Assembly (NCBI RefSeq): GCF_013167455.1 | Contig: NZ_CP038328.1 | DNA: 64,000 nt | Direction: 5' to 3' (one strand) | From: Escherichia coli O157:H7 | GTDB lineage: Bacteria; Pseudomonadota; Gammaproteobacteria; Enterobacterales; Enterobacteriaceae | Part shown: piece after piece, positions 6,276 through 32,909 of the stretch | Layout of the letters: each line of letters starts with the position of its first letter | Position numbering within the stretch: the stretch's first letter is position 1 | The notes under the pieces: generated by a model | What the model was told of the DNA's origin: nothing | The model's database searches: none | Seen by the model: the letters and a program-made list of their open reading frames with translations, nothing else | Translations under genes and position numbers: made by a program

Positions 6276-7547
6276 TTCGAGCATTTTGCGGATCTGCTCC
6301 TGTTGATGTGTTGTCAGTGTCAGGTCCGTATAGATCAGCGGTGGTGAAAAGAGCGGTAACGGCATGGTATAAGGAGCAATAATCAGTGCCGCGCCACGCG
6401 GAGCGCCTGTCTGCAAAAATGCCTTTACCGACATATGTTTAATGTTGAGCGGCAGTAACGTTAGTTCGCGTAACTGTTGCTCAATCTGCGCTTCTCGCTC
6501 GCTATCATTCCCGGTCAGTAGAATAATCTGTTTTTCATGCAGATCGTTTTCCTGCATTAGCCAGGCACCGAAAATCACCGCGACCAGACCACTTTCCTCA
6601 TCAGAAAGATGGACGCCGTATTCACTTTCAAATCCGGCCAGCGCCGCGCGGGTGGTGCGTACCAGGCGTGGATACAGTCTGGCGAACTCTTCCGGCAGGG
6701 TATTATCAATACCGATGGCAAACAAACTGCGATTTAACGCCTGGGCGAGGTGGGTATAAAGCTGATCACATAACCCCTGTTCATCATAAAAACGAACATT
6801 TCCCAGCTCACGAAAATGGTTTACCAGACGTTTGATAGACTGACGCAATTGTCTGTCCCGCTGATGCGCATCCCGCAATGGATCGGGAACCCGCAACATG
6901 GAAAAAAGTAGTGCCATAAACAGTGGCTCATCAGGTGGTACAGGCTGGAGCGCCCGACGCTGCCAGTGGCGTCCAATTTCCTGCGCTACCTGAAATTCAA
7001 GGCAGGATTCCGCCCAGCGACGTTGGAGCGGATTAAACTGAGGCGTAATTCCAGCGTGGTGCTGCAGCAAACAATATTGCAGATACAGACACAGGAAATG
7101 AATATCGCGCGATTCAAAGCGTTTTTGCAGCCGTCGGGAGCAGAGATTCACTAACGCTTGTAGATTGGTATCGTCGTAAAAGTTACGCGCAATTCCGCGC
7201 CGCTTCAGTTCACTCTTCAGGGCGGGGGTGAATTGGCTGGTAATAAATGACGGACACAGACGGAAACCACGTCGTAGCCAGTGAAATAAACACAAACGTT
7301 GGTTAAGCACTGTACCTTCAACCCGGTAGCTACCGTCATAACCAGTCGTCAGTGTGAGTTGATGATAGCGCAGGATCTCCCGTCCTGTTTCGCTGATATC
7401 AAGACTGGCAATATCATCATCCACACCATTAAGCTCGCTGAAGGTTGCCATGGTGGCGGTCAACCCCGGCTGAAAGAGCGTCAGCAAGATCTGGCAGCGG
7501 CGCTGGGGAGCCGAAAGGACAGATGGTGGAGCAAGCGTAGGCATCAT
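6267..7547 (-). CDS. csiE: Stationary-phase inducible protein CsiE
   Basis: ORF track 433 aa; start chosen at MMPTLAPPSV giving 426 aa; 3' end overlaps hcaT 3' end by 9 bp (convergent). Confidence 0.85.
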   Translation of the reverse strand: MMPTLAPPSVLSAPQRRCQILLTLFQPGLTATMATFSELNGVDDDIASLDISETGREILRYHQLTLTTGYDGSYRVEGTVLNQRLCLFHWLRRGFRLCPSFITSQFTPALKSELKRRGIARNFYDDTNLQALVNLCSRRLQKRFESRDIHFLCLYLQYCLLQHHAGITPQFNPLQRRWAESCLEFQVAQEIGRHWQRRALQPVPPDEPLFMALLFSMLRVPDPLRDAHQRDRQLRQSIKRLVNHFRELGNVRFYDEQGLCDQLYTHLAQALNRSLFAIGIDNTLPEEFARLYPRLVRTTRAALAGFESEYGVHLSDEESGLVAVIFGAWLMQENDLHEKQIILLTGNDSEREAQIEQQLRELTLLPLNIKHMSVKAFLQTGAPRGAALIIAPYTMPLPLFSPPLIYTDLTLTTHQQEQIRKMLESA

Positions 7548-7737
7548 CTGTAGATCTCCCATAAGCATAATTGATAAGAATAGCTAAAGTTTGCTCAGGG
7601 AAATGGCGAAGGGAATGCTAATCATCAGAAATGTTGGCAAGCGTCACAGAATTTTTCTCATCTTAAACTGTCCTGACCAGTGGATTAGCATGTCTTAAGG
7701 TGATTTTGTGAATGATTATCGTGCTAGAGATCATGGG

Positions 7738-8592
7738 TTAGTTCTGCGGATTCAACGCGCTAAGGATAAAGTTCACCATCTGTTCGCGATAAACGTCGCC
7801 GTGACGATCGGAAAAAGCATCAATGTGTTCGCCATCCGGGATTAGGATCAACCGTTTTGGCTCTTTTGCCAGGCTATACAACTTTTCGCTGTGCTGCCAT
7901 GGGATAACGTGATCAGCTTTACCGTGAATGAGTAAAAGCGGGATCGGGCTGACGCTGGCGATATAATTTTCGCCGCTGTAACTCTCATCAAGTAAGTAGC
8001 CACTGCCGGGGATCATCTGGTTGGCGATGGTTGCATAAGAGGCAAATGTGGAGTCGAGGATCACTGCACGTATGCCTTCACGATCACCCTGACCAATAAC
8101 AGCAAGAATATTCGCCCCGCCAATACTCTGCCCGAACAGCACCAGCCGTTGTGGGTTTACATCACTGCGATGGCGCACCACATTGATGGCGCTTTGCGTA
8201 TCGTCCAGCAATCCGGCCTGGGACGGCGTGCCTTTTGATTTACCAAACCCGCGATAATCAAACATAAAAACGTTGAAATTACGCTCGGGTAACCAACTGA
8301 CCAGCGGCCAGTGGGCGGACATATTTCCGGCATTGCCGTGAGCATGAATGATGGTTGCGATGGCGTTGTCAGCAGGGCCCGTCGAAGAAGGAATAAACCA
8401 GCCTTGCAGACGAGTACCGTCCTTAGCCGTAAATTCGACGGATTCCGCCGACCAGGGGTCGGGACCGTAAATTTTATCGTCAGGATAATAGAAGAAGTTG
8501 ATGGCAACGCGCGGCACTAAATAAACGCAGAAGGCAACAACAAAGAGAATAAACAGAATTTTGGGAACGCGTTTGTTCACTGGCAGTGCCAT
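7738..8592 (-). CDS. yfhR: Alpha/beta-hydrolase (S9 peptidase-like) membrane-anchored protein
   Basis: ORF track frame 7738..8619; internal ATG at 8592 (MALPVNKR...) is preceded by AAGGAAAGG Shine-Dalgarno, the 8619 ATG is not; N-terminal TM helix, GQSIGG nucleophile elbow. Confidence 0.85.
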   Translation of the reverse strand: MALPVNKRVPKILFILFVVAFCVYLVPRVAINFFYYPDDKIYGPDPWSAESVEFTAKDGTRLQGWFIPSSTGPADNAIATIIHAHGNAGNMSAHWPLVSWLPERNFNVFMFDYRGFGKSKGTPSQAGLLDDTQSAINVVRHRSDVNPQRLVLFGQSIGGANILAVIGQGDREGIRAVILDSTFASYATIANQMIPGSGYLLDESYSGENYIASVSPIPLLLIHGKADHVIPWQHSEKLYSLAKEPKRLILIPDGEHIDAFSDRHGDVYREQMVNFILSALNPQN

Positions 8593-25185: not shown

Positions 25186-27498
25186 ATGCCTCGCTTGTTA
25201 ACCAAACGCGGCTGCTGGATAACGCTGGCAGCTGCGCCATTTCTCCTTTTTCTTGCAGCGTGGGGAGCAGATAAACTCTGGCCTCTACCGCTGCATGAAG
25301 TCAATCCCGCACGAGTGGTCGTGGCGCAGGATGGTACGCCGCTCTGGCGCTTCGCCGATGCTGACGGCATCTGGCGTTATCCTGTAACAATCGAAGATGT
25401 TTCTCCACGTTACCTTGAAGCGCTGATCAATTATGAAGATCGCTGGTTCTGGAAGCATCCTGGGGTGAATCCATTCTCGGTGGCGCGCGCAGCATGGCAA
25501 GATCTCACTTCGGGACGGGTTATTTCCGGTGGCAGCACGCTCACTATGCAGGTTGCTCGTCTGCTTGATCCTCACCCCAAAACATTTGGCGGCAAAATTC
25601 GCCAGCTCTGGCGCGCGTTGCAACTGGAATGGCATCTGTCTAAGCGTGAAATTCTGACCTTGTATCTTAACCGCGCTCCGTTTGGCGGTACGTTGCAGGG
25701 GATCGGTGCGGCAAGTTGGGCTTATCTCGGAAAGTCGCCTGCGAATTTAAGCTATTCCGAGGCGGCAATGCTGGCGGTTTTGCCGCAAGCGCCCAGCCGT
25801 CTTCGCCCGGATCGTTGGCCGGAGCGTGCCGAAGTCGCGCGTAATAAAGTGCTCGAACGGATGGCCGTGCAAGGTGTGTGGTCCCGTGAGCAGGTAAAAG
25901 AGTCAAGGGAAGAACCCATCTGGCTGGCACCCCGACAAATGCCGCAACTGGCACCGCTGTTTTCGCGCATGATGCTCGGTAAAAGCAAAAGCGACAAAAT
26001 CGTTACTACGCTGGATGCCGGTCTTCAACGACGTCTGGAAGAACTGGCGCAAAACTGGAAAGGACGATTACCACCGCGCAGCTCACTGGCGATGATCGTG
26101 GTTGATCATACCGATATGCGTGTTCGCGGCTGGGTGGGTTCGGTTGATCTCAACGATGATTCACGCTTTGGTCATGTTGATATGGTCAATGCGATCCGAT
26201 CGCCAGGATCGGTGCTCAAACCGTTTGTTTACGGTCTGGCGCTGGATGAAGGATTGATCCACCCGGCATCACTGCTGCAAGACGTCCCCCGGCGTACCGG
26301 TGATTACCGACCTGGCAACTTTGACAGCGGTTTTCATGGCCCGATCAGCATGAGCGAGGCGCTGGTGCGCTCGCTGAATTTACCTGCTGTGCAGGTGCTG
26401 GAAGCCTATGGACCGAAACGGTTTGCGGCAAAGTTACGCAATGTTGGATTGCCGTTATATTTGCCCAACGGTGCTGCGCCGAATCTTTCGCTCATTCTCG
26501 GCGGCGCTGGTGCGAAACTGGAAGATATGGCGGCAGCGTATACCGCGTTTGCTCGCCACGGCAAGGCAGGCAAATTGCGCTTACAGCCTGACGATCCGCT
26601 GCTTGAACGGCCTTTAATGTCGTCGGGAGCGGCGTGGATCATTCGCCGGATTATGGCTGATGAAGCGCTACCCTTGCCGGATGGTGCCTTGCCGCGCGTC
26701 GCCCCACTGGCATGGAAAACGGGCACCAGCTATGGCTATCGTGACGCCTGGGCGATTGGGGTTAACGCTCGCTATGTCATTGGGATCTGGACTGGCAGAC
26801 CGGACGGCACGCCCGTTGTTGGTCAGTTTGGTTTTGCCAGCGCCGTACCATTGTTGAATCAGGTCAATAATATCTTACTGTCGCGCAGTGCTAATCTGCC
26901 GGAAGACCCGCGCCCGAACTCAGTCACTCGTGGCGTTATTTGCTGGCCGGGCGGACAGTCTTTGCCGGAAGGTGACGGTAACTGTCGCCGCCGCCTGGCA
27001 ACCTGGCTGCTGGACGGGAGTCAGCCGCCAACTCTATTACTGCCGGAGCAGGAAGGCATTAATGGCATTCGTTTCCCCATCTGGCTGGATGAAAATGGCA
27101 AACGTGTTGCCGCTGATTGCCCGCAAGCGCGACAAGAAATGATAAATGTCTGGCCGCTACCGCTGGAACCCTGGTTGCCCGCATCAGAACGTCGCGCTGT
27201 GCGCTTACCACCGGCCTCGACAATTTGCCCGCCATACGGTCACGATGCCCAGCTCCCGCTGCAGCTGACAGGCGTTCGCGATGGCGAGATTATTAAACGT
27301 TTACCGGGCGCAGCGGAAGCGACTTTGCCGTTGCAATCAAGTGGAGGGGCAGGTGAACGCTGGTGGTTTCTGAATGGCGAACCGTTAACTGAACGCGGGC
27401 GCAACGTGACCCTGCATTTGACGGATAAAGGTGATTATCAATTGCTGGTGATGGATGACGTAGGGCAAATCGCGTCAGTACATTTTTCATTTCAGTGA
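25186..27498 (+). CDS. pbpC: Penicillin-binding protein 1C (bifunctional transglycosylase/transpeptidase)
   Basis: 770 aa ORF starting immediately after yfhM stop (taaATG); glycosyltransferase motifs EDRWFW and RQLWRALQLE. Confidence 0.93.
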   Translation: MPRLLTKRGCWITLAAAPFLLFLAAWGADKLWPLPLHEVNPARVVVAQDGTPLWRFADADGIWRYPVTIEDVSPRYLEALINYEDRWFWKHPGVNPFSVARAAWQDLTSGRVISGGSTLTMQVARLLDPHPKTFGGKIRQLWRALQLEWHLSKREILTLYLNRAPFGGTLQGIGAASWAYLGKSPANLSYSEAAMLAVLPQAPSRLRPDRWPERAEVARNKVLERMAVQGVWSREQVKESREEPIWLAPRQMPQLAPLFSRMMLGKSKSDKIVTTLDAGLQRRLEELAQNWKGRLPPRSSLAMIVVDHTDMRVRGWVGSVDLNDDSRFGHVDMVNAIRSPGSVLKPFVYGLALDEGLIHPASLLQDVPRRTGDYRPGNFDSGFHGPISMSEALVRSLNLPAVQVLEAYGPKRFAAKLRNVGLPLYLPNGAAPNLSLILGGAGAKLEDMAAAYTAFARHGKAGKLRLQPDDPLLERPLMSSGAAWIIRRIMADEALPLPDGALPRVAPLAWKTGTSYGYRDAWAIGVNARYVIGIWTGRPDGTPVVGQFGFASAVPLLNQVNNILLSRSANLPEDPRPNSVTRGVICWPGGQSLPEGDGNCRRRLATWLLDGSQPPTLLLPEQEGINGIRFPIWLDENGKRVAADCPQARQEMINVWPLPLEPWLPASERRAVRLPPASTICPPYGHDAQLPLQLTGVRDGEIIKRLPGAAEATLPLQSSGGAGERWWFLNGEPLTERGRNVTLHLTDKGDYQLLVMDDVGQIASVHFSFQ

Positions 27499-27592
27499 AA
27501 TATACAAAATATTTATTAATCTAATTATGGTATTTATATTTGGAATGCATTAATAATTTAATAATCTCACGTTTTTTTAAACGACTAATTAT

Positions 27593-27606
27593 TTGATTGT
27601 TATCAG
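27593..27606 (+). promoter_or_regulatory. FNR-like box upstream of the accessory molybdoenzyme operon
   Basis: TTGATtgttATCAg matches the FNR consensus TTGAT-N4-ATCAA at 9 of 10 positions, about 56 bp upstream of the ATG at 27662, inside an AT-rich intergenic region. Confidence 0.5.
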
Positions 27607-27661
27607 CATTGTTCTCGAATAAATACGTGAATATTTATTTTTTCATTTTCGGGAACGCAAG

Positions 27662-30043
27662 ATGGATACGCCAGACGAAAAGGAACGCATTACATTTCCG
27701 CAAGTATCACGACGTAGTTTTTTACAAGCGACTTCCGCGCTTATCACTTTGCCTTTTATTTCTTCTACCGCAAAGGCGCAATCCCCAGATGCGTCGCCAG
27801 AAGTTACAGCTCCAGTAGCTGATAAAGTCGTGCCCACCTGTAGCACATTTGACTGCGGTGGTAAGTGCGATATTCGGGCGCATATGCGCGACGGCGTGGT
27901 GACGCAAATTACCACGCTTCCCGATAACGAATTGGATCCACAAATGCCGATTATGCGCGCCTGTGTTCGTGGTCGCGGCTATCGTAAATTTGTTTATCAT
28001 CCAGACCGTTTGAAATATCCGATGAAGCGGGTAGGTAAACGAGGCGAGGGTAAATTTGAGCGTATCTCATGGGATGAGGCGACGACCTTAATTGCCGATA
28101 ACCTGAAAAGGATCACGCAACAATATGGCCCAGCTTCACGTTATGTCCATGTCGGGACGGCTGTTTCTGGTGGAACATTTTCTGGCGATGCGATGGCGCG
28201 TCGGCTGTTAAATTTAACCGGTGGTTATCTTGAATATTATCACTCAGTTAGTCTGGGTAATACTGCGGCGGCCACGCCTTACACGTATGGCGTGGCCGCG
28301 AGCGGTAACTCGATGGATACTCTTCTGGATACCAAACTGGTGATTCTCTGGGGGCATAACCCAACGGAAACCATATTCGGTCACACCAATTACTATTTTC
28401 AAAAAATGAAGCAAAACGGTACACGTTTTATCGTGGTGGATCCGCGCTATTCCGACACCGTATCTTCACTTGCCGATCAGTGGATCCCGCTGTTGCCGAC
28501 CACGGACAATGCGTTGATGGACGCGATGATGTACGTCATTATCAGCGAGAATCTCCACGATAAGACATTTATCGACACATATACTCTCGGTTTTGATGAA
28601 AACTCCATGCCGGAAGGCGTACCAGCCAACGAATCGTTGGTTGCCTACCTTTTTGGCGCAAAAGATGGGATACACAAAACGCCGGAATGGGCAGAAAAAA
28701 TTACCCACGTTCCAGCACAATCCATTCGTCAACTGGCACGCGATTACGCCACTACAAAACCCGCAGCGTTGATTCAGGGATGGGGGCCACAGCGACATAT
28801 TTGCGGCGAACGCACCGCCCGAGGTTCAACTTTACTGGCCTCGATTACCGGTAACGTCGGCATCAAAGGTGGCTGGGCGGCAGGTTACGGCGGTAGTTCT
28901 AATCGTAAATTCTGCGTTGGACCAGATATGCCAGAAAATCCGGTACAAGCGAAAATCTCGATTATGAACTGGATGCAGGCGGCGGATGATGCTTCTAAAG
29001 TTACGCCGCAAGATGGGCTTAAAGGTGTCGATAAACTCGACAGTAATATCCGCCTGCTGTTCTCACTGGCAGGTAATTATCTGGCGAACCAGAACCCGGA
29101 CGTCCACCAGGCCGCGAAGCTCCTTGAAGACGAATCTAAAATAGAATTCATCGTACTCAGCGATCTGTTCATGACTCCGAGCGCGAAATATGCCGATGTG
29201 TTGCTGCCGGAAACCAGCTTTATGGAACGCTGGAATATCGGCGAAACATGGGGAACTGCGAGCTATCTTATTCTGTCAGAAAAACCGATTGAGCCGGATT
29301 TTGAACGTCGCACCGATTATGACTGGTTGCGTGACGTGGCGAAAAAACTGGGTGTCGAAGCCGAGTTCAGTCAAGGACGTGATGAGAAGCAATGGATCGA
29401 GCATATCTGGGAGCAAACTCGTCTGGCGATGCCGGATGAAAATTTGCCGGACTTCGCAACCCTGCAAAAAACACGTCGACATCTTTTCAAAAGCGCGCCG
29501 CACATCGCTTTCGAAGCAAATATTCGCGATCCGCAGAATAATCCTTTCCCGACGCCTTCCGGCAAAATTGAGATCTTCTCTAAGCGTCTTTTTGATATGC
29601 AAGATCCAGAAATTCCCGCGCTTTCGCACTATGTCCCTGCCTTTGAAGGGCCAGAAGATAAACTGACGGCGAAATACCCGTTGCAGCTCATCACCTGGAA
29701 AGGGAAAAACCGTGCTAATTCCACCCAGTATGCTAACCCGTGGCTGCAAGAAGTTCAGACGCAAAAACTCTGGCTGAATCCGCAAGATGCAAAACAGCGC
29801 GGGATTAGCGAAGGAGATAGCGTAAAAATTTATAACGATCGTGGTGTGAGCATTATCCCGGTGGAAATAATCCCCCGTATCATCCCTGGCGTAGTTGCTA
29901 TGCAGGCGGGGGCATGGTGGCAACCGGATGCACAAGGTATCGATCGCGGAGGCTGTGCCAATGTACTGAGTTCGACCCGCATTACGGCGCTGGCGAAAGG
30001 GAATTCGCATCAAACAATGCTGGTGGAGGTTGAGAAAGCATGA
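27662..30043 (+). CDS. Tat-exported Mo-bisMGD oxidoreductase catalytic subunit, DMSO reductase (DmsA/YnfE) family; substrate unknown
   Basis: 793 aa ORF; twin-arginine signal SRRSFLQ...AKAQ; N-terminal Cys cluster CSTFDCGGKCD; block ACVRGRGYRKFVYHPDRLKYPMKRVGKRGEGKFERISWDEA nearly matches DmsA as recalled; ATGA overlap with next gene. Confidence 0.85.
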   Translation: MDTPDEKERITFPQVSRRSFLQATSALITLPFISSTAKAQSPDASPEVTAPVADKVVPTCSTFDCGGKCDIRAHMRDGVVTQITTLPDNELDPQMPIMRACVRGRGYRKFVYHPDRLKYPMKRVGKRGEGKFERISWDEATTLIADNLKRITQQYGPASRYVHVGTAVSGGTFSGDAMARRLLNLTGGYLEYYHSVSLGNTAAATPYTYGVAASGNSMDTLLDTKLVILWGHNPTETIFGHTNYYFQKMKQNGTRFIVVDPRYSDTVSSLADQWIPLLPTTDNALMDAMMYVIISENLHDKTFIDTYTLGFDENSMPEGVPANESLVAYLFGAKDGIHKTPEWAEKITHVPAQSIRQLARDYATTKPAALIQGWGPQRHICGERTARGSTLLASITGNVGIKGGWAAGYGGSSNRKFCVGPDMPENPVQAKISIMNWMQAADDASKVTPQDGLKGVDKLDSNIRLLFSLAGNYLANQNPDVHQAAKLLEDESKIEFIVLSDLFMTPSAKYADVLLPETSFMERWNIGETWGTASYLILSEKPIEPDFERRTDYDWLRDVAKKLGVEAEFSQGRDEKQWIEHIWEQTRLAMPDENLPDFATLQKTRRHLFKSAPHIAFEANIRDPQNNPFPTPSGKIEIFSKRLFDMQDPEIPALSHYVPAFEGPEDKLTAKYPLQLITWKGKNRANSTQYANPWLQEVQTQKLWLNPQDAKQRGISEGDSVKIYNDRGVSIIPVEIIPRIIPGVVAMQAGAWWQPDAQGIDRGGCANVLSSTRITALAKGNSHQTMLVEVEKA

Positions 30044-30669
30044 GCCAATTTAAAGAATTTGCATCTGTCAGCGACAAACAATTAGGGTTCTTTATTGACT
30101 CTTCGCGTTGTTCGGGCTGTAAAGCGTGTCAGGTGGCCTGTAAAGACAAAAACAACCTTGAGGTTGGGCGACGTTTTCGCCGCGTGTATGAAGTGAACGG
30201 AGGTGGCTTCATCGCCACTGGAGAGGGCGGTGTGAGTCATAATGTCTTTGCTTATACCCTTTCTGTTTCCTGTAACCATTGCGCGGATCCGATCTGTACC
30301 AAAAATTGCCCGACGATGGCGATGCATAAGCGTCCCGGAGACGGTATTGTGCGCGTGAATACTGATAAGTGCGTCGGTTGCGGTTACTGCGCCTGGTCCT
30401 GTCCTTACGGCGCACCACAAATGAATGAGCAGACCGGGCAGATGTCGAAATGCGATTTCTGTATTGATCTGCAAGCTAAAGGAGAACAACCCATTTGCGT
30501 GGCAACGTGCCCGTTGGGGGCGATTAAGTTCGGCCCTATTGATGAGTTGCGTGAAAAGTATGGCGATGTCAGTGATGTGAAAGGTTTACCTGATTCGTCG
30601 ATTACGCAGCCAAATCTGGTGATTAAACCGCATCAGGGCGCGGAAAAGGAGGCGTCACATCATGCATGA
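30040..30669 (+). CDS. Four-cluster [4Fe-4S] electron-transfer subunit, DmsB/YnfG family
   Basis: 209 aa ORF with four ferredoxin Cys motifs (CSGCKACQVAC, CNHCADPICTKNCP, CVGCGYCAWSCP, CDFC...CVATCP); GGAGG Shine-Dalgarno; overlaps neighbours. Confidence 0.85.
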   Translation: MSQFKEFASVSDKQLGFFIDSSRCSGCKACQVACKDKNNLEVGRRFRRVYEVNGGGFIATGEGGVSHNVFAYTLSVSCNHCADPICTKNCPTMAMHKRPGDGIVRVNTDKCVGCGYCAWSCPYGAPQMNEQTGQMSKCDFCIDLQAKGEQPICVATCPLGAIKFGPIDELREKYGDVSDVKGLPDSSITQPNLVIKPHQGAEKEASHHA

Positions 30670-31483
30670 ATTACCGTTAATGGCTTTTACGCTGTTGTTA
30701 CAGGCATCGGTCGGTATGACGTTGTGGCTGGCGTTTCTTCATCGTCATATTTTAATCACCTCCAGCGCCCGCCCGGTTATGCGGCCGCCATTACTGTTGG
30801 CTTTTTTGGCAGGTGCCGTAGGGTTACTGATTTCTACCTTACACCTGGGTTATCCACTTAATGCGATGCATGCGCTGAGCCACTTTTCCAGTTCATGGCT
30901 GAGTCGGGAAATTATCTTTGGTGCGCTGTATCTGGCGCTATTGGGTTTATCCACATTACTGGTCATGTTACGCAAAGGCGGCTGGCAACTCCTGCTTATG
31001 CTAGCGGCAGTGGTCGGGATTGTTGATGTTTTCTGCATGGCGCAAGTTTACATCCATACGTCGATTATCACCTGGCAGCATTACAACACGCTGATTATGT
31101 TCTTAGGTACAGTGGGAATTCTCGGTTCAGCGCTGGTAGCAGTGTTTCGTATTAGCGGAATTTTGCCGCAGATTGATGCCCTGCGTAATGGATGCGTGTT
31201 GGTGATCGCTCTCCTGGTTCTGCTGCGTTTGTTGGTTCAGCCGTTGTGGATAGGGGATTTAACGGCAAATGCGATGCAGATAGCCACATTGCCACATGCG
31301 CCATTAGCGATGCTGGGACAGTTAAAACCCATACTGACACTAAGCTGGGGAATTTCCGTCATTGGGATGATGTTCTTTGCTGTCGGTGGTTGTAAAAAGA
31401 ATATCCCGGCGGCGTTATTCGGTAGCGTAATGCTAGTGGGGAGTGAAGTTATGCTGCGTTTTGTCTTTTTTAGTATCGGCTAA
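30662..31483 (+). CDS. Integral membrane anchor subunit, DmsC/YnfH family
   Basis: 273 aa ORF with about 8 hydrophobic segments; AGGAGG Shine-Dalgarno; 8 bp overlap with upstream gene and TAATG overlap with downstream gene. Confidence 0.75.
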   Translation: MHELPLMAFTLLLQASVGMTLWLAFLHRHILITSSARPVMRPPLLLAFLAGAVGLLISTLHLGYPLNAMHALSHFSSSWLSREIIFGALYLALLGLSTLLVMLRKGGWQLLLMLAAVVGIVDVFCMAQVYIHTSIITWQHYNTLIMFLGTVGILGSALVAVFRISGILPQIDALRNGCVLVIALLVLLRLLVQPLWIGDLTANAMQIATLPHAPLAMLGQLKPILTLSWGISVIGMMFFAVGGCKKNIPAALFGSVMLVGSEVMLRFVFFSIG

Positions 31484-32337
31484 TGTTAAGTCATAACATA
31501 ACGATTGGCGCGGAATGCGCGCGCCAACGCTTTCGTTTTGCAACATGTCATGCCTGTGTCGAGGCTTGCCCGGCACAGGCGCTAACGCTGACAGAAGAGG
31601 GCATAGCGGTCGACGCGGAACAATGTATTGATTGTGCGGTTTGCCAGTTTATTTGTCCGCAAGAGGCTATTCGTGGCGTTAATTCCCCTTTACGTTATTT
31701 TTGCAATCACACCCTGGTCGCACCTTTCACCACTATTGCGCCGACGCTGGAAGAACTTTTGCTATGGCATAAAGAGCAGGGGATCACAGCGATCGCGATT
31801 GATCTGAGTCAGGCGAAGGCATGGGAGCGCGCATTATTGCTGTTAAACGAATGCTTACGGCAATATGGCGAGGAAGGCTGGTCTGTGGTATCTCCACATA
31901 CCAGTGAGGTGAATGTTTCCCGGCGTCGTTTGTTCCATGTGCAGCGTGCGGATGTTCAGATGACACAAATACAACCAGGATTACGTCGGTTACATTATTT
32001 ATGGCCCCAGATTAGTGATGCTCGCCCGATGATGGATCCTCAAAAGTGTCAGCTTTGCGGTGCATGCTGGCGGGCCTGCGAGCAACAGGTCTTTTCGCTT
32101 AACGAAGGCCATTTACAAATAAATGATGCCTTGTGTAACGGATGCCAAAATTGTATTGCTGTTTGTTTTCATCAGGCAATGACCGTTGAATTGACGATTC
32201 TACCGGCAAAAATTGTGAATCTTCATGCTAATCGCAAAGTCTGTAAAACCTGTCAAAAATCCTTTCTTACTTTTCAGCAAAATGCGCAAAATTGTCTTTA
32301 TTGCCAACGTCATCGTTATGGGATGAGAACACCATAA
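31483..32337 (+). CDS. Cysteine-rich polyferredoxin-like protein (NapF/iron-sulfur maturation-like?), function unknown
   Basis: 284 aa ORF, no signal peptide; motifs CHACVEACP, CIDCAVCQFICP, CQLCGACWRACE, CNGCQNCIAVC, plus C-terminal CKTC-x13-CLYC; translationally coupled to the membrane subunit. Confidence 0.7.
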   Translation: MLSHNITIGAECARQRFRFATCHACVEACPAQALTLTEEGIAVDAEQCIDCAVCQFICPQEAIRGVNSPLRYFCNHTLVAPFTTIAPTLEELLLWHKEQGITAIAIDLSQAKAWERALLLLNECLRQYGEEGWSVVSPHTSEVNVSRRRLFHVQRADVQMTQIQPGLRRLHYLWPQISDARPMMDPQKCQLCGACWRACEQQVFSLNEGHLQINDALCNGCQNCIAVCFHQAMTVELTILPAKIVNLHANRKVCKTCQKSFLTFQQNAQNCLYCQRHRYGMRTP

Positions 32338-32477
32338 AAGTCGAGTTGTTGCTAAAACTCATTTTATTTTAAAAAAATGTTACCTTCATCAATAGTCAAC
32401 GGCTCTGTTGCTCATTATAATCCGCGCCATCTCGTACGCTGGTACAGACAACAACAGAACAATTTACAGAGGTAAAA

Positions 32478-32909
32478 ATGGCTATTGAACGTACTTTTTC
32501 CATTATCAAACCGAACGCGGTAGCAAAAAACGTCATTGGTAATATCTTTGCGCGCTTTGAAGCTGCAGGGTTCAAAATTGTCGGCACCAAAATGCTGCAC
32601 CTGACCGTTGAACAGGCACGTGGCTTTTATGCTGAACACGATGGAAAACCGTTCTTTGATGGTCTGGTTGAATTCATGACCTCTGGCCCGATCGTGGTTT
32701 CCGTGCTGGAAGGTGAAAACGCCGTTCAGCGTCACCGCGATCTGCTGGGCGCGACCAATCCGGCAAACGCACTGGCCGGTACTCTGCGCGCTGATTACGC
32801 TGACAGCCTGACCGAAAACGGTACCCACGGTTCTGATTCCGTCGAATCTGCCGCTCGCGAAATCGCTTATTTCTTCGGCGAAGGCGAAGTGTGCCCGCGC
32901 ACCCGTTAA
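32478..32909 (+). CDS. ndk: Nucleoside diphosphate kinase
   Basis: 143 aa [24 protein letters not shown] with active-site NGTHGSDS. Confidence 0.95.

Follow-up and report, generated by a model that had tools for sequence, protein, structure and literature searches.

The assembly of molybdoenzymes exported by the twin-arginine translocation (Tat) system, i.e. their loading with five iron-sulphur (Fe-S) clusters and the molybdenum cofactor, and their clearance for export, is only partly understood. To our knowledge, few dedicated accessory factors are known beyond the chaperones of the TorD family, namely NapF, NapD and FdhE. NapF is a cytoplasmic protein with a role in the maturation of NapA, and FdhE is a cytoplasmic, cysteine-rich factor (with CxxC pairs) of the Tat-exported formate dehydrogenases. 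Here we describe a gene that may encode a further protein of this kind. It is located in a 64,000-nt stretch of the Escherichia coli O157:H7 contig NZ_CP038328.1 (the whole stretch is referred to as the window, and all its coordinates are numbered within it), where it occupies positions 31483-32337 of the + strand and encodes a polyferredoxin of 284 aa. Judged from the sequence, a DmsABC-type operon ends with this gene, whose translation is coupled to that of the preceding dmsC-like gene: its ATG shares one base with the dmsC-like stop codon (TAATG).

The gene is already annotated (RefSeq WP_000948584.1, '4Fe-4S dicluster domain-containing protein') and the idea of an accessory protein is known; neither Pfam nor NCBIfam annotates the family to which it belongs as such. 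With moderate confidence, we interpret the product as a cytoplasmic Fe-S accessory factor, similar to NapF, that helps to build or activate a DmsAB-type molybdoenzyme before its export. The polyferredoxin family would accordingly be a candidate for a further accessory factor of Tat-exported molybdoenzymes.

Architecture of the polyferredoxin

The open reading frame (ORF) and the RefSeq annotation agree on a product of 284 aa, which, as the original prediction had it, lacks a signal peptide. The protein contains 22 cysteines (7.7%). Its N-terminus (MLSHNITIG) carries neither a signal peptide nor a twin arginine, and no membrane segment is predicted, because the maximum Kyte-Doolittle hydropathy over 19 residues is only 1.42. 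By these sequence features the polyferredoxin is cytoplasmic. The UniProt entry Q8XAA2 (E. coli O157:H7) comprises only 192 aa; this older, N-terminally truncated gene call would drop the entire first dicluster domain. The 284-aa form is supported, since this domain is retained in all homologues.

A Pfam domain search, which the original prediction had called for, identified two 2x[4Fe-4S] dicluster domains (residues 21-63 and 183-233; E values of 1e-6 to 1e-4), placing the protein among the dicluster ferredoxins, and gave no match at residues 66-180 or 235-284. The N-terminal domain (residues 12-63; 31516-31671, + strand), matched by Fer4_7, Fer4_9 and LdpA_Fe-S-bd, consists of a variant motif, C12-x9-C22-x2-C25-x3-C29-P, with a spacing of x9 instead of x2, followed by a canonical CxxCxxCxxxCP motif. 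The C-terminal domain (residues 183-233; 32029-32181, +) is matched by Fer4_7, Fer4_10 and Fer4_21. The canonical motifs begin at C48, C189 and C218, so that the expected minimum of four ferredoxin-type motifs is reached with three canonical ones and the variant. Between the two domains lie a middle alpha/beta domain (approximately residues 66-140; 31678-31902, +), with the conserved elements EELLLWH, W114 and LN122, and an internal motif resembling a twin-arginine signal, S146-R-R-R-L-F151 (31918-31935, +). The protein ends with a four-cysteine (C4) finger, C254KTC257-x13-C271LYC274 (32242-32304, +). Neither the middle domain nor this finger has a match in Pfam, NCBIfam or PDB. No Pfam or NCBIfam family spans the whole protein, and none of the 25 best NCBIfam matches listed reaches its cut-off, with the whole protein or with the N-terminal domain alone as the query.

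An AlphaFold model, calculated with an alignment of 63 sequences, shows a single compact fold with a mean predicted local distance difference test score (pLDDT) of 92.4 and a predicted template modelling score (pTM) of 0.89. The middle domain is modelled with pLDDT values of 93-98, and confidence drops only at residues 141-160 and over the last few residues. The SRRRLF motif is thus situated in the linker of lowest confidence (59 for residues 141-150), which is presumably flexible. In the model, the C4 finger forms beta-hairpins followed by a helix that begins at the second CxxC. The resemblance of this pair to a zinc ribbon had been pointed out earlier; the invariance of the motif (see below) and the modelled fold are compatible with this assignment, whereas the Pfam families Zn_ribbon_8 and zf-ChsH2 give weak matches, in only two members per alignment. 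A zinc ribbon is a plausible identity of the finger, with zinc and iron as the candidate metals.

A Foldseek search of AFDB50 revealed the same fold, always unnamed, in many Enterobacterales (Salmonella, Enterobacter, Citrobacter rodentium, Lelliottia, Buttiauxella, Rahnella, Hafnia, Cronobacter, Morganella, Providencia and Proteus) and, beyond this order, in several Bacillaceae and in Gallibacterium. Among solved structures, none matches the polyferredoxin beyond a ferredoxin domain.

Relatives and conservation

A word-indexed search yielded only 13 full-length clusters of homologues (32-71% identity). An exhaustive profile search produced 76 representatives (E values up to 1e-30), mostly full-length, plus a more distant group of proteins of 330-360 aa. 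This sister group of approximately 350-aa proteins has at least 672 members (E values up to 1e-10), mostly from Pseudomonadota; a profile-profile comparison with the alignment of 63 full-length homologues (A2; identity down to 22%) gave a probability of 100% and an E value of 1.6e-52 over 271 columns, so that the two groups can be aligned from end to end. Relatives were found in Enterobacterales, Vibrio, Pasteurellaceae, Bacillaceae-like contigs and, for the sister group, Proteobacteria. The family is widespread, occurring in at least four operon types and in pathogens (E. coli O157, Salmonella, C. rodentium and Proteus) as well as environmental bacteria. The database names of its members are all generic ('4Fe-4S binding protein', 'ferredoxin', 'polyferredoxin'), and in the literature we found neither experimental work on the family nor a characterised orthologue.

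Members of this unnamed family share one order of elements over their full length, into which the window protein fits: an N-terminal dicluster domain, the middle domain, [S/T]RRx[LF][LF], a C-terminal dicluster domain and the Cys4 finger. The invariant columns of alignment A2 are exactly the 16 ferredoxin cysteines, the four C-terminal cysteines and L92. The cysteine pattern far exceeds chance, as none of the 20 positions varies across the 63 homologues, whose identity goes down to 22%. The sister group (alignment A3; 35 sequences in the motif counts) contains four additional invariant cysteines in the middle domain, arranged as C-x13-C-x26-C-x2-C (e.g. residues 96, 110, 137 and 140 of P0106). 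They suggest a further metal or cluster site, which the O157-type proteins would have lost. The A3 profile of the middle domain has no match in Pfam or PDB.

Apart from L92, the most conserved non-cysteine positions of the family are those of the SRRxLF motif, whose conservation is about as high as that of the cysteine ligands. The corresponding columns contain S/A/T, R (53 sequences) or K (7), R (61 of 63), x, L/F/W and L/F in A2, and S, R (33 of 35), R (35 of 35), x, F/L, F/L and R in A3. Residues 146-151 of the window protein fit the Tat consensus S/T-R-R-x-F-L. The motif cannot be an export signal, since it is not followed by a hydrophobic h-region and is located 145 residues from the N-terminus. 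We hypothesise that it is a linear docking motif, mimicking a Tat signal, for a signal-binding chaperone or TatBC. This internal motif, the overall architecture, the breadth of the family and its pairing with TorD are not described in the literature that we found.

The four products of the operon have diverged at different rates. Across Enterobacterales loci, the identity to the window proteins is 77-83% for the catalytic subunit (A), 83-88% for the Fe-S subunit (B), 41-54% for the membrane anchor (C) and 33-43% for the polyferredoxin. The ratios of nonsynonymous to synonymous substitutions (dN/dS), calculated against two close Escherichia sp. loci, are 0.06-0.07, 0-0.06, 0.11 and 0.17-0.25, respectively. 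Since the last of these values indicates purifying selection and is combined with low identity, the polyferredoxin gene is functional and loosely constrained outside the ligands. To us, such a pattern fits an accessory factor better than a core subunit of electron transfer.

Gene neighbourhoods of the family

In 19 of the 22 distinct gene contexts examined, the polyferredoxin gene has as neighbours the genes of a molybdopterin oxidoreductase and of its Fe-S subunit (Fer4_11 type). The contig scan returned 10 loci from a single usable peptide pattern, so the distribution at the species level is undersampled. Enterobacterales chromosomes carry the order A-B-C-polyferredoxin, at times followed by a TorD-family gene. 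The other arrangements are (i) A-B-C-polyferredoxin-TorD on a plasmid of Vibrio alginolyticus, (ii) AraC and then TorD-A(860 aa)-B-C-polyferredoxin on a plasmid of Citrobacter freundii and in Gallibacterium, (iii) polyferredoxin-radical SAM-TorD-A-B-C on one gammaproteobacterial contig (L011), (iv) A-B-NrfD-TorD-polyferredoxin-TatA on a Firmicute-like contig and (v) cytochrome-A-B-TorD-polyferredoxin, with no membrane-anchor gene, at the sister-group loci, where one short contig shows B-TorD-polyferredoxin. An anchor gene is likewise absent beside the polyferredoxin gene of locus L007. Synteny with the A and B genes, in several arrangements, thus extends across Gammaproteobacteria, Alphaproteobacteria and Firmicute-like contigs. 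The constant neighbours are the catalytic subunit with a Tat signal and its Fe-S partner, a chaperone of the TorD/DmsD type (PF02613) is often the third, and the anchor is not constant.

Two consequences follow from these arrangements. The gene under study has the same place as dmsD in ynfEFGH-dmsD, as had been noted; the polyferredoxin co-occurs with TorD/DmsD-type chaperones and is therefore no replacement for DmsD. Furthermore, at loci with periplasmic A and B proteins but without a neighbouring anchor gene, a protein with Fe-S clusters in the cytoplasm can encounter A and B only prior to their export.

Two of the loci have additional features. At L011, a gene for a 446-aa radical SAM protein (6634-7974) separates the polyferredoxin gene from that of the TorD-like chaperone, and an 861-aa molybdoenzyme is encoded downstream. 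The Proteus homologue (L009, 7001-7885) stands alone beside an fnr-like gene and uspE; it is preceded by a 50-aa ORF and has no adjacent molybdoenzyme gene.

Comparison with known systems

NapF (translated here from E. coli K-12, b2208) resembles the polyferredoxin in having four cysteine motifs and in that its gene shares an operon with that of a molybdoenzyme exported by Tat. The best alignment pairs the N-terminal module of the polyferredoxin with NapF residues 93-157 (hhalign E value of 2.8e-11) and includes the sequence TIGxxC; a wide spacing after the first cysteine is common to both (x7 in NapF, x9 in the polyferredoxin). Both proteins also contain a twin-arginine motif that does not serve export, which is N-terminal in NapF (SRRGIL) and internal in the polyferredoxin. 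The latter is larger (284 aa versus 164 aa). It has two parts that NapF lacks, the middle domain (some 110 residues) and the Cys4 finger at the C-terminus, and it is encoded in a dmsABC-type operon, not in nap, with a DmsAB-type partner instead of NapA. Membership of the NapF family fails on size, domain content, position of the twin arginine and operon type. A circular permutation of NapF, in which the twin arginine and the C-terminal half would correspond to the N-terminal half of NapF, was also rejected: hhalign left the twin-arginine regions unaligned and only the N-terminal module aligns specifically.

A counterpart in another genus is STM2527 of Salmonella, the fourth gene of STM2530-2527, which occupies the same site between pbpC and ndk and has the same A-B-C-polyferredoxin order. 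Its product is approximately 38-40% identical to the window polyferredoxin, as against approximately 83% for the A subunits, and the Salmonella entry in AFDB has the same predicted fold (template modelling score of 0.90 at 39% identity).

The chaperones TorD, DmsD and NarJ (PF02613) share the gene neighbourhood and presumably the site and time of action, i.e. the cytoplasm before export. There is no relationship in sequence or fold: the polyferredoxin has no PF02613 match, and its model is alpha/beta with ferredoxin domains, not all-helical. With FdhE the analogy is functional only, since the polyferredoxin has no match to the FdhE family of Pfam and FdhE lacks ferredoxin domains. The best sequence matches among solved structures are the archaeal proteins MvhB and FwdF (E values of 2e-36 to 1e-26), which are built of repeated 2x[4Fe-4S] domains. 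The methanogen-type polyferredoxins (MvhB, VhuB and FwdF) have six or more dicluster domains, and the window protein falls far below their models (36.6 bits against a cut-off of 600 for Vhu_polyferre, 38.6 against 375 for FwdF).

DmsH of Shewanella oneidensis (SO_1432) was considered as a possible named homologue. It is encoded by the last gene of the dimethyl sulfoxide (DMSO) reductase operon, after the TorD-like dmsG, and the resulting order, A-B-TorD-X, resembles that of the sister-group operons. According to a 2024 study of Shewanella, deletion of dmsH impairs the reduction of DMSO and iodate; in S. piezotolerans, DmsH is annotated as 'conserved hypothetical'. The primer table of the same study gives a complementation amplicon of 468 bp and a deletion of 428 bp, and the coding ends translate as MTFVTAV... 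and ...RNMGG. From these sizes DmsH has about 150 aa; judged from the amplicon sizes and primer ends, it differs from the polyferredoxin in its termini and architecture and was rejected as a homologue.

Proposed function and alternative explanations

The interpretation as an accessory factor builds on the anatomy and conservation of the polyferredoxin, its cytoplasmic location, its membership of the operon and its association with A and B genes; the steps of the mechanism are what we infer from them. A polyferredoxin with four [4Fe-4S] clusters and a Cys4 metal finger would act on the DmsA-like and DmsB-like proteins before their export by Tat, probably alongside a TorD/DmsD-type chaperone, which in E. 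coli O157 would be encoded elsewhere in the genome. Its likeliest activity would be redox or Fe-S assistance in the assembly of the A/B pair. This may consist in (i) the loading of clusters into A and B, (ii) keeping these clusters reduced or (iii) the reductive activation of the molybdenum cofactor, as proposed for NapF with NapA. The SRRxL/FF/L motif may dock on the chaperone or on a Tat receptor by mimicking a Tat signal. Of the earlier analogy with NapF, the maturation role is favoured by the gene context, and what does not extend further than one dicluster module is the likeness in sequence.

Several observations weigh against this interpretation. The E. coli operons dmsABC and ynfEFGH have no such gene alongside, and DmsABC is not known to need such a protein for its maturation, so that the need for it would be clade-specific. 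Three members of the family (from Proteus, P0137 and P0116) have no adjacent molybdoenzyme gene, and the twin arginine is not universal, as the Vibrio homologue reads ERKPLL at the aligned position. The NapF likeness is confined to one ferredoxin module (60 columns in hhalign, and matches of motif length only in BLASTP), and the 25 best NCBIfam matches listed, for the whole protein or the N-terminal domain, include no NapF model. Finally, the sole literature found, a study of Salmonella, mentions the fourth gene of STM2530-2527 as uncharacterised, and STM2530 alone did not restore DMSO-dependent growth. A requirement for the polyferredoxin could help to explain such failures of heterologous or single-gene expression of reductases.

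A variant of the accessory role, in which the protein is a Tat quality-control factor, appears rather unlikely. The SRR peptide would occupy TorD/DmsD or TatBC until the clusters or the Cys4 finger report that A and B have been loaded with their cofactors; if true, redox or cofactor status would be directly coupled to release for export. We regard as unlikely, too, a sensor of redox or Fe-S status, i.e. a checkpoint or regulator that delays export or expression until conditions are anaerobic or reducing, with no direct part in cofactor insertion. LdpA is a redox-sensing Fe-S protein, and LdpA_Fe-S-bd matches the N-terminal domain in 52 of the 63 members; moreover, a binding or regulatory role would be in keeping with the C4 finger and with the SRRxLF peptide, which is conserved and exposed, and the Proteus homologue adjoins fnr. 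However, the Pfam and NCBIfam searches detected no DNA-binding or signalling domain, four clusters exceed the needs of known Fe-S sensors, and the gene context ties the family to structural and chaperone genes rather than regulators.

The original prediction had also offered an extra electron-input module. In this case the polyferredoxin would sit permanently on the cytoplasmic face of the DmsC-like anchor as an electron-transfer subunit and connect the periplasmic reductase with a donor or acceptor in the cytoplasm (ferredoxin, NAD(P)H or a further enzyme). Its four [4Fe-4S] sites do resemble a wire, as in MvhB or FwdF, the gene directly follows the dmsC-like gene, with translational coupling, and C and the polyferredoxin both diverge fast. 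The operons described above disfavour this role and make it quite improbable: the sister-group operons and L007 have no anchor gene beside that of the polyferredoxin, the Firmicute-like operon encodes an unrelated anchor of the NrfD type, and the gene often adjoins those of TorD-type chaperones and once that of TatA. In addition, we know of no redox cofactor in anchors of the DmsC family that would allow electrons to pass the membrane. It is very improbable that the polyferredoxin is a general-purpose standalone ferredoxin whose place in the operon is incidental, or a decaying passenger gene. The generic names in all databases and the three homologues not located beside a molybdoenzyme would agree with this, but the breadth of synteny with A and B, the purifying selection and the invariance of all 20 cysteines argue against it. 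We therefore retain the accessory factor acting before export as the preferred interpretation.

Organisation of the locus in the window

The four-gene block is bordered by pbpC (25186-27498) upstream and ndk (32478-32909) downstream. The first gene (27662-30043, +) encodes a catalytic subunit of the DmsA/YnfE family (793 aa) with the Tat signal VSRRSFLQ. This dmsA-like product scores 1122 bits with TIGR02166, the DmsA/YnfE subfamily model (cut-off of 778), and reaches none of the cut-offs of the narrower models for DmsA, YnfE and YnfF. Its Salmonella counterpart, STM2530, did not support DMSO-dependent growth. The dmsB-like gene (30040-30669, +) overlaps the first by 4 nt and encodes a DmsB-type four-cluster Fe-S subunit of 209 aa (TIGR02951, 266 bits against a cut-off of 214). 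It is overlapped by 8 nt by the dmsC-like gene (30662-31483, +), encoding a membrane anchor of the DmsC/YnfH family (273 aa) according to the RefSeq annotation; the homologous genes of related loci match PF04976.

No promoter-like site was found on the + strand within or near the dmsC-like and polyferredoxin genes before 32393-32421, where a sequence TAGTCA-17-TATAAT (+) lies past the polyferredoxin gene and upstream of ndk. Further upstream there is one weak match (9/12) at the junction of the A and B genes (30030-30058). A terminator-like GC-rich palindrome at 31505-31527, flagged on both strands 22-45 nt into the polyferredoxin ORF, was rejected, as its fold does not exceed that of shuffled sequence in stability (z -0.87). 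The 160-bp AT-rich intergenic region after pbpC contains an FNR-like box, TTGATtgttATCAG (27593-27606, +), with one mismatch to TTGATnnnnATCAA, 62 bp upstream of the dmsA-like start codon. Matches to such a box number 4 in the window against 2.5 expected, which is not significant, and only the position of this one is suggestive.

Of 5426 complete E. coli genomes, 379 contain the four-gene block between pbpC and ndk, and both of its borders are AT-rich (GC of 0.40-0.41); by these two features, the region 27499-32477 behaves like a variable island. The PADLOC defence models gave no match. The same site is occupied in Salmonella (STM2530-2527), S. arizonae, S. diarizonae and Pseudocitrobacter. 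In the last three, the A subunit is approximately 82-84% identical to that of the window and the polyferredoxin only 38-43%. The dmsA-like gene of Pseudocitrobacter faecalis (L014, 4160-6543) is seemingly split into ORFs of 370 and 457 aa, which suggests a frameshift or a pseudogene; the genes for B, C and the polyferredoxin are intact.

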